Of a stretch of 63,937 bases of DNA, positions 2,525-42,784 are shown in pieces. The stretch lies in contig JAQBDA010000231.1 in the NCBI GenBank assembly GCA_032124675.1, positions 1 through 63,937 on the forward strand. The letters run 5' to 3'. The stretch's first letter is position 1, and each line of letters begins with the position of its first letter. Position numbers and translations under genes: made by a program. Below the pieces are notes generated by a model. It was not told the origin of the DNA and made no database searches. It saw only the letters and a list, made by a program, of their open reading frames with translations. This stretch comes from Chloroflexota bacterium. Lineage in GTDB: Bacteria > Chloroflexota > Anaerolineae > Anaerolineales > UBA4823.

Positions 2525-3112
2525 CTAGGTGCCCTCATAATTCCAGTCGGGCAGCGAATCTTGCCCCAGACCGAGTTTGCGCTTCAGCGTCAGACGCCCG
2601 TAGTACAGCCTGGATTTGACCGTCCCGACCGGCACCTGCAGGATATCGGCGATCTCTTGAAGCGAGAGATCATTCAGGTAGTACATCACAATTACGACTC
2701 GCTGAGGCAGCGGCAAGGAAGTAACTGCTTTCTGGACCCGCTCCCACTCGTCATTACGCTCTACTGCTGCATCCGGAAGATTTTTACCCGGAACCACCAG
2801 CCAGTCGATCAGATCCTCCAACGGTCGCGGCAGCCGGCTGCGCCGCTTGACCCAATCATAAGACAAATTTGTCGTCATGCGGTAAAGCCAGGGTTCAATC
2901 GGGCGAGCCGGGTCGATATTACCCGCAAATCGGAACAACCGTAGAAATACGTCTTGCAGCAGATCATTTGCAGCTTCATTATCCCCGGTGATCACCAGCG
3001 CGGTGCGGAACACCATACGCTGGTGCAGGTCGTACAGCTCACCCAGAGCTTCCAGGCTGCCGTTTTGCAGTTTGAGGATCAAATCACTGTCATTCGCCTT
3101 CGTCATATCCAT
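2525..3112 (-). CDS. ECF-type sigma-70 factor
   Basis: Region 2 (AANDLLQDVFLRL, WLYRMTTNLSYD) and region 4 (LSLQEIADILQVPVGTVKSRL). Confidence 0.92.
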   Translation of the reverse strand: MDMTKANDSDLILKLQNGSLEALGELYDLHQRMVFRTALVITGDNEAANDLLQDVFLRLFRFAGNIDPARPIEPWLYRMTTNLSYDWVKRRSRLPRPLEDLIDWLVVPGKNLPDAAVERNDEWERVQKAVTSLPLPQRVVIVMYYLNDLSLQEIADILQVPVGTVKSRLYYGRLTLKRKLGLGQDSLPDWNYEGT

Positions 3113-36462: not shown

Positions 36463-37638
36463 ATGTCCCCAGAGCAAGAGCGCATTTTGGTCGTCGAAAG
36501 CGATCCCGCGAACAGCGAGCTGATCGCCCGGCAAACACTGCGCCCCATGGGCTATAAAGTTCAAGTGGTGCGCGCGGCGGGTGAAGCTATTCAGCAAGCG
36601 ATCACTTTCAGCCCGGATATTATCATTGCCAACCTTCATTTACCGGATTTGAGCGGCAAAGATCTATTGGTGGCCTTGACATCTCAGGGCATCGCTGTCC
36701 CTGTGATCGCGATCGCGAATCGAGGTTCTGAATATGACCTGGTTCAGGCTTTCCGTCTAGGGGCATCCGACTTCCTTATCTCCCCAATCCGGGAAGCCGA
36801 AGTGATATCAGCGGTCGAAAGAGTCCTGAAACAGATGCGCGCTCGCCGTGAGCGTGAGCGCCTGGAGAAACAGCTCAACCAGACTAATCAAGAGCTCCAG
36901 CAGAGGGTGCGAGAACTGACCACTATCTACTCAATCGGGAAGGCTGTCACATCGATCACGGACCAACCACTGTTGTTCGATAGGATTGTCGAGGGGGCAG
37001 TTTATATCACTGGCGCGGATTGCGGCTGGCTTCTGCTGCGCCAGGAGAACACGGACAGCTTCACGCTCAGCGCCCAGTTAAATCTCCCTGACCAATATGC
37101 TGAAAAATTGAACCAGCCGTGGGATGATGGGATCAGCGGCCTGGTTTCGCTTTCCGGTGAATCCTTATCCATCCACGGAGAGCCATTGAAGAGGTTTAAG
37201 ATCTCTCGCCTGGCACGAGCGCTCCTGGTCATACCGATAAAAGCGAAGAAAGAGGTCATCGGCTTGCTCGTGGTGGCAAGGACAACCCCCAGACCATTTG
37301 GCCCAAGCAATCAGGCGTTATTGGAAGCGGTAGCCGATTATGCCTCGATTTCACTGGTGAATGCCCGGTTGTTCCGTGCCATTGAAGAGCGCGCCCTCAG
37401 CCTGCAAAAATCCGCTGAAGCTGCGCAAGCGACAGCAGTCTTTCGGGATGCAGCCTTCCGGAAAACACAGCTGCAGCTGGAAGAGCCACTGCAGAGTGCA
37501 TTACACACGATCAAAGAATTACTGGTGGGCGAGAACAGTCGTTTGAATACCACACAGAAAACCCTGCTGAAATCTACGCAGGAAAATTTATCTTATGCAT
37601 TAAAAGAATTGGGAAAGTCACTCGAAACAGGCAAGTGA
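36463..37638 (+). CDS. Atypical receiver plus GAF domain protein
   Basis: REC fold with IIANLHLPD (Asp to Asn), coiled coil, GAF domain, His-less DHp-like tail; TGcTATGAT 6 nt before the ATG. Confidence 0.82.
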   Translation: MSPEQERILVVESDPANSELIARQTLRPMGYKVQVVRAAGEAIQQAITFSPDIIIANLHLPDLSGKDLLVALTSQGIAVPVIAIANRGSEYDLVQAFRLGASDFLISPIREAEVISAVERVLKQMRARRERERLEKQLNQTNQELQQRVRELTTIYSIGKAVTSITDQPLLFDRIVEGAVYITGADCGWLLLRQENTDSFTLSAQLNLPDQYAEKLNQPWDDGISGLVSLSGESLSIHGEPLKRFKISRLARALLVIPIKAKKEVIGLLVVARTTPRPFGPSNQALLEAVADYASISLVNARLFRAIEERALSLQKSAEAAQATAVFRDAAFRKTQLQLEEPLQSALHTIKELLVGENSRLNTTQKTLLKSTQENLSYALKELGKSLETGK

Positions 37639-37673
37639 ACACAACTCTATCACCTCACTCACACATTATCTGA

Positions 37674-39599
37674 ATGCCTAACGAACAAATCTTCATCATC
37701 CTCTCAAATTCACAAACCAGCCGTCTGCTCGAGGAAACAATCCTGGTTCCGCATGGATATCGGGTCACTCAAATAAGGGAGGCGGAAACTCTGGAACTAT
37801 TGCTGGACTCCCAACCACCGGATCTGATCATTCTGGAAGACAAGATTGCGGACGGCAGCGGTCTGGAACTCGCCGCAGGTCTGCAGGAACGCCACCCTCT
37901 CCTGCCGCTCATCCTGGTATCCGATCCATATTCGGAAGCTCTATTGCTGCAAGCCTTGCGCAGCGGGATATGGGATTATCTATTCCCGCCATTCGATGCC
38001 GGCGATGTGCTTGGGGCAGTGGAGGGCACACTGCAGAGGCAGAAACGGATATCAAGCCTGGTTCAAGAGACCGGAGACCAGACCCCAGGGATGGTGCCTC
38101 AGCGGGTCAAGAACCTTGAAGCACTGCAGCAGATCGGGCGCCAAGTAACCTCTATCCTGGACCTGGATAACGTCCTTGCCGCAGTTGTGGATGCGGCAGT
38201 CGATATAACGGGTGCAGAAGAAGGCAGCCTGCTGCTGGTAGATGAGAACAGCGGCGAGCTGTATATGCGTGCGGCACGCAATTTCCATGAAGATTTTGTG
38301 CGTAAATTCCGCCTACCTATCGAAGACACGCTGCCTGGTGAAGTACTGCGCACCGGACAGCCCCTGCTGATCAACACCGCCACACCCAAGAAAATCAAAA
38401 CCTCCTATTTAGTCCATACGCTGATGTACGTACCCATGACAATCGGGGACCGGGTAGTCGGCGTGCTGGGCGTTGATAATCGCCGCAGCGGTCAACCTTT
38501 CTCCAGCTACCACCTCGAAATGATGCACGCATTGGCTGATTATGCTGCGATTGCCGTCGAGAACGCCCGGCTGTTCGCAGATTCCGAGGTCGAGCGGGAA
38601 AAATACGAAACACTGCTGAGCAGCGTACAGGACAGCATCATCATCCTCGACCAGGATAACCGGGTCTTGTTGGTGAACCCCGCTGCACGCGCGGTCCTGG
38701 AATTGGAAGGAGAGAGGGTTGAATACCGGCCTTACAAAGATGTGATCCACCACCCGGATTTGATCGAGCTGCTTGCTGATAGAGAGACCAGCCATCCATA
38801 CCGGGGTGAGGTTGCACTTGAAGATGGGCGGGTGCTCAGCGCGCAGGTTACACCCATTCCTGAGATGGGTATTGCAGTGGTCATGCAGGATATCACCTAC
38901 CTGAAGGAGCTGGATCGCATAAAAACCGATTTTGTCAATACGATCTCGCATGATCTGCGCTCACCGCTGACCGCCATCCAGGGATATATCGAACTGGTGC
39001 GCCGGGTGGGACCGCTCAACGAACAGCAGTTGGAATTCACCCGCCGCATTCAGTCCAGCGTCCAAAATATAACCACCCTGATCAATGACCTGCTGGAGCT
39101 CGGGCGCATAGAAGCCGGGTTCGACGCGCGGAAAGAGGTTATCCCATTGTCCGCCGTAATCCGCTATGCAGTCGAGAGCATGCAGGGTCAGGCTGCTGAA
39201 AAAGAACAAACCCTGGAGCTAGAACTACCGGAAGCGCTGCCCCACGTACTGGGCAACCCGCTCTACCTGCGGCAAATGTTCACCAACTTAATCGAAAATG
39301 CGCTGCAGTATTCGACGTCTAAAGGGCAGGTTAAACTGCGTGCACAGGCCAGGGATGCCCAGGTGATTGTTCAGATCACCGATACCGGTATAGGGGTACC
39401 GCTTGCCGACCAGCCTTATATTTTCGATAAGTTCTACAGGGGGAGCAATTTGCCACCCGATTCCCAGGGAACCGGATTAGGATTGGCGATCGTAAAGATC
39501 ATCGTTGAAAACCACCGCGGCCGGATATGGATCGAATCGGTTCCCGGAAAAGGTTCCACCTTCACCATTATCCTGCCCACGATCGATCAAGAGCTGTGA
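37674..39599 (+). CDS. Hybrid kinase: atypical REC-GAF-PAS-HisKA-HATPase
   Basis: DLIILEDK receiver, GAF, PAS ending QDIT, SHDLRSPLT, NLIENALQY, DTGIG, GTGLGL. Confidence 0.9.
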   Translation: MPNEQIFIILSNSQTSRLLEETILVPHGYRVTQIREAETLELLLDSQPPDLIILEDKIADGSGLELAAGLQERHPLLPLILVSDPYSEALLLQALRSGIWDYLFPPFDAGDVLGAVEGTLQRQKRISSLVQETGDQTPGMVPQRVKNLEALQQIGRQVTSILDLDNVLAAVVDAAVDITGAEEGSLLLVDENSGELYMRAARNFHEDFVRKFRLPIEDTLPGEVLRTGQPLLINTATPKKIKTSYLVHTLMYVPMTIGDRVVGVLGVDNRRSGQPFSSYHLEMMHALADYAAIAVENARLFADSEVEREKYETLLSSVQDSIIILDQDNRVLLVNPAARAVLELEGERVEYRPYKDVIHHPDLIELLADRETSHPYRGEVALEDGRVLSAQVTPIPEMGIAVVMQDITYLKELDRIKTDFVNTISHDLRSPLTAIQGYIELVRRVGPLNEQQLEFTRRIQSSVQNITTLINDLLELGRIEAGFDARKEVIPLSAVIRYAVESMQGQAAEKEQTLELELPEALPHVLGNPLYLRQMFTNLIENALQYSTSKGQVKLRAQARDAQVIVQITDTGIGVPLADQPYIFDKFYRGSNLPPDSQGTGLGLAIVKIIVENHRGRIWIESVPGKGSTFTIILPTIDQEL

Positions 39600-39703
39600 C
39601 CTCTCCTTAAAGTCGCCTCCGCCGGGGCGGTGAGGGTGTTGCCCAGCGGAGGCTTTCGCCAAAGGAGGAAACAGCGATGAACATGAAGAGAGAAGTAATT
39701 CGT

Positions 39704-39750
39704 ATCCCGTTATCTGGTTAATATCATACCGGAGAACGGGATTTTCGTTT
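39704..39750 (+). terminator. Intrinsic terminator-like hairpin
   Basis: atcccgtt/aacgggat and tctggt/accgga stems followed by tttcgttt. Confidence 0.55.
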
Positions 39751-39869
39751 ATTGTCGAAGATCATGAGTTACGCGTGATTATTCTCACAAATATTTGTGA
39801 CAAAGCGTCTCTCAATTAGTGATACCTGTAGTTACAGGTTGTCAATATTCGAAGTGCATCCTGAGGTAT

Positions 39870-42677
39870 TTATCGCTTTGCGACCCAACCTGCGACCAGC
39901 TTGGTGATTTCCGCCGCCAATGACGGCACGAACAACAGCGGCATTATAAATCGCCACTGGCTCCAGCCGAGAGGTATTGTATTGAAGATGGGGTTCAGAA
40001 AGGGTATATAGATGACTGCCAGCAGCAACACTAAAGAGGTAAGGACTGCATAATTCATCCATTTATTTCCGAACACCCCTATTTTCAAGATCGGATAGTG
40101 CTCCGACCTGGCTGTGTATGCCCGCAATAACTCGGAAAACGAAAGGGTAACGAATGCCATCGTCTCAGCAAATTCCGGCTGCCCCGGGTACAGCCGCAAG
40201 CCGGTGAAATATGCATATAATGTCACGAGGGTGATCGCAATAGTCTGAACGGCAATGCCAACCTGCATGAAGCGATTGATAATCGGCTCAGAAGCTGGGC
40301 GTGGAGGGTAGTCCATGATGTCCGGATCGCCTTTTTCTGTGCCCAAAGCCAGTGCTGGGGCGCCATCGGTCAGCAAGTTCAGCCATAACAGCTGGATAGC
40401 CGTGAGTGGAGAGCGGCGGGTGAACAACGTGCCAAAGAAGATGATTGCGATCTCAGCCAGGTTGCAGGATAGCAAGTAGTACACGAATTTGCGGATATTG
40501 CTGTAGATCACACGCCCCTGCTCGACAGCAGAAACGATGCTGGCATAGTTATCATCTGTCAGCACCATGTCCGCGCTTTCCTTGGCGACATCGGTGCCGG
40601 TAATACCCATCGCCACCCCGATATCCGCCCGTTTGATCGAAGGGGCATCGTTAACCCCATCCCCGGTCATGGCGACCACTTCCCCGTTGGCTCGCAGCGC
40701 CTCGACGATCCGCAGCTTGTGCTCAGGCGAGACGCGGGCAAACACATCCGCGGTCTTAACCTCGCGCTGCAAGGTCGCATCATCCATCCCCGCCAACTCA
40801 CTGCTGGTGAGCACTTGATGCCCGGGCTGCAGCAGACCGATCGATTCCGCGATGGCGCGGGCAGTTTTCGGATAATCACCGGTGATCATAATCGTGCGGA
40901 TACCGGCTGCACGTGCCTTCTCCAGGGCAGCCGGCACTTCAGCCCTCGGCGGGTCGATCATACCAACCAGACCGACAAATGTCAGGTCTTCCTCCAGGAT
41001 ATCTGGAGTGATCTCGGACGGTTCTTCAGGCAGCACCCGGTATGCCATCCCCAAAACGCGCAAAGCATCCTGGGTCATGGTATCGTTCGCTTGAAGAATG
41101 CGCATGCGCTGGCTCTCGTCCAGCGGAATGGCATGATCATCCATCCGCTGGTAATGCGTGCAGCGCTCCAAGACCAAGTCGGGCGCTCCCTTGACAGTGA
41201 TGACATATCCTTTGAGTCTACTGTTCTGGTCGCTGAATGGCGAAATATCCTCAGATTTCGGATACTCAAGCACATGTATCGTGATCATCCGTTTGCGCGC
41301 AGAGTCGAAGGGCACCTCCTGGACACGCGGGTACGCAGCGTTCAAATCACGAATCTCTGCCCCGGCCTTTGCCGCAGCGACCAGCAGCGCACCTTCGGTG
41401 GGGTCCCCGACCATTCGATAAGCTTCTTTGCCGTTGGTAGAACCGGCAATCTCCAGTTCAGAGTCATTGTTCAACGCGGCAACCCATAACGTGGTTAAGA
41501 TCGCCTGGTAATCGATAAGTTTGATCGGGGTCTCGTTGACTATAAATTCCCCATAAGGCTCGTAACCGCTGCCTGTGATCGAGACGAACTCACCATCCGC
41601 CCAGAGACGAGTAGCAGTCATCTCGTTTTGGGTAAGGGTACCGGTTTTGTCGGAGCAGATCATACTGGCTGATCCCAGGGTCTCCACAGAAGACAGCCGC
41701 CGGATCAGAGCATGGCGTTTGATCATCTCCCGCATGCCCAGCGCCAGGCTGATCGTTACAATCGCCGGCAATCCCTCCGGCACAGCTGCGATAGCCAGAC
41801 TGACCGCGATGATAAACATATCCAGCGGGTCAGAGCCCTGCAGCAAGCCTACAACGAAAACCAGACCGCAAACAACCAAGGCGGCCCATCCAAGTGTCTT
41901 ACCCAGGCGATCCAGGCGGCGCTGCAGCGGAGTGGGTTCATTCTGAACGGATTGGAGCATCTCCGCGATGATCCCGATCTGGGTGTACATACCGGTCGCC
42001 ACGACCAGCCCGCGGCCGCGGCCGTAATTTACGATCGTACCCATAAAGGCGGTGTTCTTGCGATCGCCCAGAGGGATATCCGATTCGAGTGTGGCTGAGG
42101 CGTCCTTCTGCACGGGTACCGATTCGCCGGTCAGGGCAGCCTCCTCAACCCGTAAATTTATCGCCTCCAGCAAACGGATGTCTGCCGGCACATAATTGCC
42201 CGCTTCCAGCAGCACCAGATCTCCGGGGACAAGCTCGCTGGCAGGCACCATCTGGCGAGAACCATCTCGCAATACGTGCGCTTCGGGAGCCGCCAGCTTT
42301 CTCAAAGCTGCCAGCGCTTGCTCGGCACGCCGCTCCTGGAAGACGCCCAGAGCTGCGTTCAAGATCACAATAGCCATGATCGCTGCAGCTTCGAAGTAAT
42401 CCCCTAACAGGGCGGAGATTACCGCCGCAACGATCAGCAGTATGACGACGAAGTTGTTGAATTGCTCCCACAACATCTGCCAGAAAGTTGTCGGAGGCGC
42501 TTCTTTCAATTCGTTATGACCAAATTCTTCCAGGCGTCTGGCAGCCTCCAGCATGGTCAACCCCCCTTCCGGCGGGGCATCGAGCTGGCGTAATACATCA
42601 TCTTTATTCACAGCATGCCAGGCATCTGGGCCGGTTTTTGCCGTAAAGAACTGCGGGGAAAACTTTTTCGTTGCCAT
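39870..42677 (-). CDS. P2A-type (SERCA-like) cation-transporting P-type ATPase, probably Ca2+
   Basis: TGES, VPEGL, DKTGTLTQN, KGAPD, DPPR, TGD, GDGVND, QLLWLNLLTDG. Start likely 42677. Confidence 0.93.
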   Translation of the reverse strand: MATKKFSPQFFTAKTGPDAWHAVNKDDVLRQLDAPPEGGLTMLEAARRLEEFGHNELKEAPPTTFWQMLWEQFNNFVVILLIVAAVISALLGDYFEAAAIMAIVILNAALGVFQERRAEQALAALRKLAAPEAHVLRDGSRQMVPASELVPGDLVLLEAGNYVPADIRLLEAINLRVEEAALTGESVPVQKDASATLESDIPLGDRKNTAFMGTIVNYGRGRGLVVATGMYTQIGIIAEMLQSVQNEPTPLQRRLDRLGKTLGWAALVVCGLVFVVGLLQGSDPLDMFIIAVSLAIAAVPEGLPAIVTISLALGMREMIKRHALIRRLSSVETLGSASMICSDKTGTLTQNEMTATRLWADGEFVSITGSGYEPYGEFIVNETPIKLIDYQAILTTLWVAALNNDSELEIAGSTNGKEAYRMVGDPTEGALLVAAAKAGAEIRDLNAAYPRVQEVPFDSARKRMITIHVLEYPKSEDISPFSDQNSRLKGYVITVKGAPDLVLERCTHYQRMDDHAIPLDESQRMRILQANDTMTQDALRVLGMAYRVLPEEPSEITPDILEEDLTFVGLVGMIDPPRAEVPAALEKARAAGIRTIMITGDYPKTARAIAESIGLLQPGHQVLTSSELAGMDDATLQREVKTADVFARVSPEHKLRIVEALRANGEVVAMTGDGVNDAPSIKRADIGVAMGITGTDVAKESADMVLTDDNYASIVSAVEQGRVIYSNIRKFVYYLLSCNLAEIAIIFFGTLFTRRSPLTAIQLLWLNLLTDGAPALALGTEKGDPDIMDYPPRPASEPIINRFMQVGIAVQTIAITLVTLYAYFTGLRLYPGQPEFAETMAFVTLSFSELLRAYTARSEHYPILKIGVFGNKWMNYAVLTSLVLLLAVIYIPFLNPIFNTIPLGWSQWRFIMPLLFVPSLAAEITKLVAGWVAKR

Positions 42678-42784
42678 ATTCTCCAATACCATCCAGGCCA
42701 ATAAGCCTGTTTACAAACAGGCGGGCATCGAGATTTGTCGGATTATAACATTTCGTGAAATTTACCTCATATCACTCGCAGCAA

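Follow-up and report, generated by a model that had tools for sequence, protein, structure and literature searches.

The question raised by the locus considered here is what is encoded, and on which strand, in the interval between two genes of a Chloroflexota bacterium of the order Anaerolineales (assembly GCA_032124675.1, contig JAQBDA010000231.1); the window, i.e., the whole stretch of DNA that was analysed, comprises 63,937 nucleotides (nt). A REC-GAF-PAS histidine kinase, recognised by its Pfam domains, is encoded at 37674-39599 of the plus strand, with its stop codon TGA at 39597-39599, and the next gene past the element under study, that of a P-type cation ATPase, lies at 39870-42701 on the minus strand. 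A sequence-only reading of this region had taken the positions directly after the kinase stop for an orphan attenuator-like cassette of the plus strand, in which a sequestered Shine-Dalgarno (SD) sequence precedes a 14-codon open reading frame (ORF) overlapping a terminator. The interpretation favoured here, to which we assign a probability of roughly 0.6, is that the minus strand carries the gene of a trans-acting small RNA (sRNA) of ~110 nt together with its promoter, and that a loop of this RNA resembling an anti-SD sequence would pair with the ribosome-binding sites of mRNAs; the SD, the ATG and the long hairpin noticed on the plus strand are most likely elements of this sRNA read on the wrong strand.

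The element is almost certainly a conserved functional non-coding element: it is conserved order-wide, with compensatory base changes, far beyond what chance would produce. When the homologous loci are read side by side, the positions ~39607-39803 of the window appear as a single conserved block, extending from TTAAA (39607) to about GTGACAA (39803). In a similarity search of 40 relatives with a 501-nt query, composed of the 3' end of the kinase gene and the spacer, the portion ~39607-39690 shows 80-94% identity in other genera and families of the order, as compared to 68-75% for the coding part of the kinase; the element is present in one copy in its own genome and in one copy in nearly all relatives. 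An exact-match scan with the 24-nt core TTCGCCAAAGGAGGAAACAGCGAT found it, among the matches listed, in more than 119 contigs, with one match per contig, mostly in records of metagenome-assembled genomes (MAGs) assigned to Anaerolineales, Anaerolineae or Chloroflexota. A covariance model of the element (R1) scores 87 bits in the window, on the minus strand, and yields a single match of 79-97 bits, with a nearly identical core, in 21 of the 25 genomes of the same family; the four genomes without a match are three MAGs that are 53-89% complete and one genome (G012) that is 95% complete. R1 matches of 38-87 bits occur in the families f3, f6, f8, f9, f12, f15 and f16 of the order; in the last two of these, only (U)CUCCUCCUUUGGCGA, about 15 nt, is retained together with the GC-rich hairpin and its tail. 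Homologues across the whole phylum were considered and rejected, the R1 matches outside the order (16-23 bits) being unreliable: one group of them corresponds, in antisense, to the genuine start region of a gene encoding a 310-aa membrane protein, and another is a plain terminator. The search for homologues and covariation proposed in the earlier reading thus shows a conserved element with a covarying stem; the ORF is not conserved.

The RNA is, with high confidence, encoded on the minus strand, a placement deduced from the asymmetry of wobble pairs, from a U-rich tail and from promoter elements. The most informative structure in this respect is the hairpin P1 (39615-39653), a 12-bp GC-rich stem in which positions 39615-26 pair with 39642-53. 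Compensatory changes are found at 11 of its 12 pairs, and 96-97% of the cells of the alignment are paired, values reached by none of 500 shuffles and to be compared with 35-56% in controls in which the stem was slid along the alignment. Among the cells that are not Watson-Crick pairs, 39 are G.U or U.G when read on the minus strand, as against six A.C or C.A, i.e., the cells that would be wobbles on the plus strand. On the minus strand P1 is followed by a variable, U-rich 3' tail, in which U makes up an average of 5 of 10 nt (background, 25%) and at least 4 U are present in 89% of the loci; on the plus strand it is followed by an invariant UUUCGCC. A second, variable hairpin (P2) is also slightly better formed on the minus strand, both in energy (-6.24 versus -5.56 kcal/mol) and in G.U pairs per sequence (0.90 versus 0.41), with a paired p = 0.002 that is uncorrected for phylogeny; apart from this small advantage, the comparison of whole-region minimum free energies between the two strands is indecisive. 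Across all families it is the CU-rich loop and the terminator that persist, whereas the ATG does not. On this placement of the RNA, the "sequestered SD" of the plus strand is simply the complement of an anti-SD-like loop. As for transcripts, metatranscriptome contigs extend over the locus (X17 covers 39459-39814 and X20 covers 39300-40003), and soil, wetland, sediment and seawater samples account for more than 15 RNA runs that contain the core of relatives; one RNA-run contig ended in adapter, at a position that is uninterpretable.

Upstream of the predicted RNA, the minus strand displays a -10 box, TATGAT (39723-39728, read 39728->39723), followed 7 nt downstream by C-A-G, which places the start at ~39715. 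Over 114 loci, the successive positions of the box are T in 113, A in 114, T in 79 or A in 26, any nucleotide, A in 102 and T in 113; in the start region, 80% of the loci have Y and 71% have R. When the hexamer is read on the plus strand, its first T is kept in only 52%. Further upstream a promoter block with fixed spacing occupies 39751-39803 of the minus strand and consists of TTGTCACA (39803-39796), a spacer, TTGTGA-N6-TCAC, N9, RTGAY, ctt and TGACAAT; the core of the palindrome lies at 39775-39788, the TT of TTGTGA extending to 39790, RTGAY at 39761-65 and TGACAAT at 39751-58, with 22 nt between TGACAAT and the -10 box, or 24 nt when counted from the TTGACA core. The spacings of 9 and 5 nt within this block are constant in 73-74 of 74 loci, whereas the sequences of the spacers vary, and the same layout is observed in family f15 (L150). 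Judged from the sequences, such rigid spacing around variable spacers has the look of a promoter or operator rather than of RNA helices; indeed, the flanking half-sites face each other with A.C mismatches on the minus strand and thus form no RNA hairpin there. Neither an ordinary -35 box nor a sigma-54 promoter accounts for the block, given the 24-nt spacing and the lack of a GG-N10-GC pattern.

The palindrome of the block corresponds to the TGTGA-N6-TCACA core common to the operators of CRP/FNR and of Rex, and the promoter is probably dependent on, or gated by, a regulator of one of these types. A Rex homologue is encoded in the genome (contig C106, 5702-5845, plus strand), in a 216-aa frame scoring 67.8 bits to PF06971, and the TGTGA-N6-TCACA motif occurs at 10 sites of the genome, about 3.5 being expected. 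Two of these sites, C50:6852 and C227:446, are perfect TGTGAA-N4-TTCACA sequences.

The predicted sRNA, of ~109 nt (39607-39715, minus strand; 5'-AGAUAACGGGAUACGAAUUACUUCUCUCUUCAUGUUCAUCGCUGUUUCCUCCUUUGGCGAAAGCCUCCGCUGGGCAACACCCUCACCGCCCCGGCGGAGGCGACUUUAA-3'), is bounded at both ends by sequence features: its 5' end is put at ~39715, at the A of the conserved CAG, because of the -10 box and of the conserved Y-R start 7 nt downstream of it, and its 3' end at ~39607 because of the hairpin and the U-rich tail. From 5' to 3', the molecule would begin with a variable region (39680-39712) comprising a conserved ACGGGA motif and the hairpin P2, which is present in most relatives with divergent sequences (UCAGGA/UCCUGA, UCAAGA/UCUUGA, CAGAAAA/UUUUCUG) and whose 3' arm is C/U-rich, reading CUUCUCUCUUC in the window and CUCUCCUGAUG in most relatives. 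There follows the conserved "seed" hairpin UCGCUG[UUUCCUCCUU]UGGCGA (39656-39677), identical in nearly all the loci of family f1 found by similarity, whose predicted stem is invariant; its loop (39662-39671) resembles the anti-Shine-Dalgarno CCUCC. An AA spacer (39655-39654) separates the seed hairpin from the terminator hairpin P1, with its loop CCCUCACCGC, and P1 is followed by the tail GACUUUAAGG (39614->39605), or GACUUUAA when followed to ~39607. Up to three C/U-rich motifs of the CUCC type, resembling the 3' end of 16S rRNA, can be counted in the f1 RNA, namely on the 3' side of P2, in the loop UUUCCUCCUU and, as CCUCACC, in the terminator loop; only the 10-nt loop is kept order-wide, the motif of the P2 arm being variable and that of the terminator loop missing in several loci of f15, a family in which an additional CUCCUC stands just before the loop. 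The predicted transcript has its own promoter and its own intrinsic terminator, and is conserved independently of its neighbours, as is generally expected of an sRNA gene.

In the mechanism that we propose, the RNA would be transcribed from ~39715, at a promoter with a strong -10 box gated by a regulator, and would end at the hairpin 39615-39653 with its U-rich tail; it would then pair with the GGAGG ribosome-binding sites, and sometimes with the start codon, of several mRNAs, thereby blocking the initiation of translation or altering the stability of the mRNA. The odds that the RNA acts by pairing with ribosome-binding sites are, in our estimate, about even, and the proposal is made because its design matches that of the C-rich sRNAs known to cover such sites. 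One parallel is offered by RoxS/RsaE of the Bacillales, which possesses four C-rich regions, binds SD sequences and blocks initiation, and is repressed by Rex (PMC5419742). With RoxS/RsaE (RF01820) the element shares a length of about 100 nt, the hairpins, the intrinsic terminator, the single copy and the conservation over a clade of the rank of an order; it likewise combines several exposed C-rich regions (the UUUCCUCCUU loop, the CCUCACC loop and the P2 arm) with a terminator, and the Rex repression of RoxS has its counterpart in the TGTGA-N6-TCAC palindrome of the promoter block and in the Rex homologue of the genome. The likeness is one of design and not of membership: no match to RoxS/RsaE is seen by covariance model, sequence or structure, the motif is here CCUCC within UUUCCUCCUU and not CCCC, the phylum is Chloroflexota, and the palindrome, unlike that of RoxS, is placed some 65 nt ahead of the start predicted for the RNA. 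A second parallel is found in the cuckoo or alpha-r14 sRNAs of Alphaproteobacteria (CcsR1-4, NfeR1), whose hairpin loops display the anti-SD motif CCUCCUCCC and which are believed to mask ribosome-binding sites in several mRNAs. These RNAs are usually present in several tandem or dispersed copies per genome; the element described here differs from them in being single-copy, in having no Rfam match, and in its unrelated lineage and overall fold.

Several observations weigh against this interpretation. The invariance of the 24-nt core in the loci L017-L135 arises by construction, these having been ascertained by exact match, so that the independent sets for conservation are the similarity search and the matches of R1. 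The promoter shows no -35 box at a normal distance, the TTGACA-like TGACAAT being 24 nt away, too far for sigma-70, and the terminator tail of the window itself, GACUUUAAGG, holds just three U. The RNA-run contigs, taken from Logan, are undirected, of low depth and often extend well past the predicted ends, so that carry-over of DNA is possible; moreover, the half-sites RTCAY-N9-GTGAT could form a plus-strand hairpin containing G.U pairs, which would be compatible with a plus-strand transcript there. The linkage to the kinase, in 71 of 109 loci, has no explanation in the proposed model. Finally, the search for targets gave modest results: over 7,580 candidate start regions the mean duplex energy of the seed is -18.0 kcal/mol, against -14.9 to -16.5 kcal/mol for three shuffled seeds, and no long mRNA site complementary to the seed was found in the genome, which is 92% complete.

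Among individual sites, a 16-nt match to the seed on contig C78 was discarded as a target, being located inside a coding region. On contig C385 (~2615-2655, plus strand), the start region of a 159-aa protein can pair with the loop and stem of the sRNA over 13 uninterrupted bases (GCCAAAGGAGGAA), plus AUGAG; the protein, which carries a twin-arginine signal (MSDEQPVSRRNFMG...), is presumably Rieske-like, as judged by eye. As chance alone should yield about two such 13-mers, this start region is no more than a candidate target. Separately, in a genome of another Chloroflexota family (G149, locus L155, 1566-2498, minus strand), the start region of the 310-aa membrane-protein gene mentioned above reads TTCGCCAGACAAAGGAGGAGAAACAGCGATGGAG and almost equals the plus-strand sequence of the core in the window, TTCGCCAAAGGAGGAAACAGCGATGA; this may be a chance resemblance to an ideal start region, or a clue to what the seed of the sRNA evolved against.

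An alternative that keeps the minus-strand RNA and changes its role is that of a decoy or sponge. The RNA would then be either an abundant mimic of the 3' tail of 16S rRNA, in global competition for SD sequences, or a ligand titrating a protein that recognises C/U-rich RNA or the 3' end of 16S rRNA. The conserved stretch of about 26 nt in f1, which exceeds typical seeds, the invariance of the seed stem, suggestive of a recognition of sequence over shape, the presence of up to three C/U-rich motifs per f1 molecule and the fact that no specific target was found would all fit such a role. In other families, however, the retained portion shrinks to the ~15 nt of CUCCUCCUUUGGCGA, the size of an ordinary seed, and nothing indicates a high abundance; the cuckoo RNAs, moreover, act on particular mRNAs. 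The same is true of RoxS/RsaE (PMC5419742 for RoxS). A decoy is, on this balance, unlikely.

The genomic surroundings suggest another possibility, in which the minus-strand RNA would act in cis. On the terminator side, the longest ORF belongs in 71 of 109 loci to the cluster of the window kinase and is convergent with the element (the cluster counts 72 members, one of them on the opposite strand), usually ending near it, at a median distance of ~40 nt; the kinase domains were verified with Pfam for the window's own kinase only. At 21 other loci a co-directional ORF of ~320 aa is found on this side, at 130-310 nt, a representative of which we take, from its sequence alone, to be a DnaJ/CbpA-type gene. 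In the window no terminator is detected between the kinase stop (39599) and P1, and a terminator-like hairpin of the plus strand (ATCCCGTT...AACGGGAT plus a T-rich tail, 39704-39753) lies past the sRNA gene, spanning its -10 box and start site; it may therefore be that kinase transcripts include the whole complement of the sRNA, and this hairpin may serve to stop them after their antisense crossing of the sRNA gene. Both the 3' end of the kinase gene and the stretch as far as 39814 are contained in the RNA-run contig X17. In this arrangement, the sRNA and the kinase operon would control each other through cleavage by RNase III, sponging or transcriptional interference. About one third of the loci, however, are without the kinase; in L008 and L012, whose neighbour is on the plus strand, the latter has its own terminator hairpin before P1; the plus-strand hairpin is shared by the window with close relatives (L003/L036, L005/L096) and not with other genera; and the best conserved part is the anti-SD-like loop, for which a purely cis-acting RNA would have no need. 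Cis-antisense control thus appears rather improbable. In their tail-to-tail position with respect to a gene of possibly overlapping transcript, the element and the kinase recall the sRNAs derived from 3' untranslated regions (3' UTRs) or from convergent antisense, excludon-like arrangements, with the difference that the element has its own conserved promoter block and that the kinase is missing in about a third of the loci.

A more speculative extension, to which we would give little credence, unites both views: the sRNA and the convergent operon of the GAF-sensor kinase would form one unit, in which kinase transcripts would run on across the sRNA gene and their 3' UTR, as a perfect "anti-sRNA" with the look of an SD and ATG, would soak up or destroy the sRNA, itself a global anti-SD regulator of translation in Anaerolineales under redox (Rex-type) or CRP/FNR-type control. 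If this were true, a signalling operon would set the level of a global regulator of translation through its untranslated tail.

The interpretation originally advanced, that of an attenuator-like element or 3' UTR of the plus strand following the kinase, with a sequestered SD and a translated mini-ORF, deserves to be examined in detail, since the features on which it was built are real. In the window, ctcctt (39603-08) can indeed pair with aaggag (39662-67), and GCCTCCGCCGGG (39615-26) is complementary to CCCAGCGGAGGC (39642-53); the SD AAAGGAGG stands 8 nt upstream of the ATG at 39677, which opens the 14-codon ORF MNMKREVIRIPLSG (39677-39721, TAA at 39719-21); a second hairpin, formed by ATCCCGTT (39704-11) and AACGGGAT (39735-42) and followed by TTTCGTTTATT, holds the stop codon of this ORF in its loop. 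The folding was likewise borne out against shuffled controls, the 164 nt of the plus strand reaching -61.2 kcal/mol (z = -3.6), with none of 200 shuffles as stable; the minus strand of the same stretch folds at least equally well (z = -4.7). To these points can be added that the SD, the 8-nt spacer and the ATG are kept in 108 of 110 exact-match loci (ATA replacing ATG in the other 2), that the position right after the kinase stop is the commonest arrangement, and that the half-sites RTCAY/GUGAU pair with G.U on the plus strand.

What these features do not show is conservation of the kind that such a mechanism implies. The SD AAAGGAGG is the plus-strand complement of the seed loop, and the ATG (39677-79) that of the CAU in front of UCGCUG; of its three bases, only the A coincides with a position of the stem, the first U. 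Over 110 homologous loci the ORF starting at this ATG ranges from 2 to 80 codons (median 16.5), and the peptides, of which MSIRRVS, MSNF and MNEGIAPHS... are examples, have nothing in common past the first few codons, which overlap the conserved RNA; in f15 and f16 there is no ATG whatsoever opposite the conserved RNA, while the CU-rich core and the hairpin persist. The long hairpin is present in the window, but two of its pairings (the outer ctcctt/aaggag, and gggcgg/ttgccc) are confined to the genus, relatives showing a plain stem of 11-12 bp, and the same restriction to the genus applies to the presumed terminator: at 39704-39742, RNAalifold detects no conserved pairing. The absence of a plus-strand gene downstream of the element in the window, already noted in the sequence-only reading, is confirmed, the minus-strand ATPase coming next; more generally, over the ~900 nt downstream of the element in the plus-strand sense, at the 111 loci where a neighbour can be called, the longest ORF runs in the opposite direction in 108, so that the lack of a downstream gene is the normal state and not the outcome of a rearrangement. 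The idea of a leader stranded by rearrangement has accordingly been abandoned. Comparison with the leader-peptide attenuators of the trp, his and pheA type leads to the same result: the plus strand of the window resembles them in its SD, short ORF and T-run hairpin overlapping the end of the ORF, but a conserved ORF, regulatory codons, a conserved alternative pairing and a downstream gene are all missing, its hairpin is genus-specific and the strand evidence points the other way. A plus-strand element would, in addition, show 39 A.C/C.A mismatches in P1, and would leave the TAtnAT box, the U tail and the fixed-spacing block without a role. We therefore judge the 14-codon ORF not to be a gene, and hold a plus-strand attenuator-like element to be very improbable; a leader peptide, an attenuator or a small-peptide gene finds no support in an ORF of such variable length, without its ATG in f15 and f16, beside a genus-specific hairpin and no co-directional gene, and a type I toxin-antitoxin-like locus is equally disfavoured, the peptides being neither conserved nor hydrophobic. 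The earlier suggestion of a novel riboregulator was right as to kind; the strand and the mechanism proposed for it find no support.

The least tenable alternative is that of a DNA-level element without an RNA product, combining a bidirectional terminator with regulator sites for the neighbouring genes, which would agree with its location between convergent genes in most loci and with the palindromic half-sites at fixed spacing, but not with promoter-side flanking genes that differ from locus to locus and belong to at least five gene families, nor with the conserved 15-26-nt single-stranded loop and stem adjacent to the terminator and the canonical -10 box at a fixed distance, neither of which a terminator needs.

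The remaining features of the locus concern its neighbours. The co-directional genes on the promoter side vary, their families (at least five) including a GAF histidine kinase, endonuclease III, asparaginase II, a small membrane protein and the ATPase; at 38 loci the promoter side is occupied by a GAF-HisKA-HATPase kinase of about 610 aa. In many relatives (such as L025) cytoplasmic sensor kinases of the GAF type bracket the sRNA gene. On the terminator side, the convergent REC-GAF-PAS-HisKA-HATPase gene is preceded by that of a REC-GAF protein without an output domain (36463-39599, plus strand, in the window), and no DNA-binding partner is encoded nearby; antitermination of the ANTAR type by this REC-GAF protein was considered and dismissed, no ANTAR domain being found even at E <= 10. 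Between the ATPase stop (39870) and the promoter block there is a perfect palindrome, ACCTGTAGTTACAGGT (39824-39839), which is kept in the genus (L003, L004) and may be the terminator of the ATPase gene, although a U-run is missing after it on the minus strand. A 76-codon ORF without a Pfam match (39832-40062, minus strand), which overlaps the ATPase gene at its 3' end but is read in a different frame, is most likely a chance frame.

As to the novelty of the element, the comparison with Rfam suggested by the sequence-only reading assigned it to no family: with Rfam 15 (cmscan, 4227 families, both strands), no match to the element was obtained at E <= 10 in the region 38500-41000 of the window, no family reached its gathering score for the element in the whole window, and none was matched at E <= 1 in six homologous loci. 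A mir-230 match on the genus-specific hairpin, far below the gathering score, was judged a chance hit, and the same probably applies to a COG3860 RNA match inside the kinase gene (39324-39412, minus strand; 21.5 bits against a gathering score of 42.5, E = 0.058). The housekeeping RNAs, considered because of the single-copy, order-wide conservation, were also set aside: none of 6S, SRP, RNase P and tmRNA is hit in Rfam, and the fold is neither rod-like nor otherwise matching. Literature searches and Rfam 15 yielded no regulatory small RNA described for Chloroflexota. We would rate the element as a new family within a kind of regulator already known, one that sets a C-rich loop against the ribosome-binding site.

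Anaerobic digesters, activated sludge and sediments count the Anaerolineales among their commonest bacteria. For this widespread and little-studied order, the element is a candidate for the first conserved regulatory sRNA, usable for RNA family databases and for the annotation of hundreds of MAGs, and it would represent a further independent case of the C-rich-loop design after those of Bacillales and Alphaproteobacteria. The lesson to be drawn from the locus is that a perfect SD followed by an ATG, in the absence of a conserved ORF, can be the antisense image of an anti-SD sRNA.

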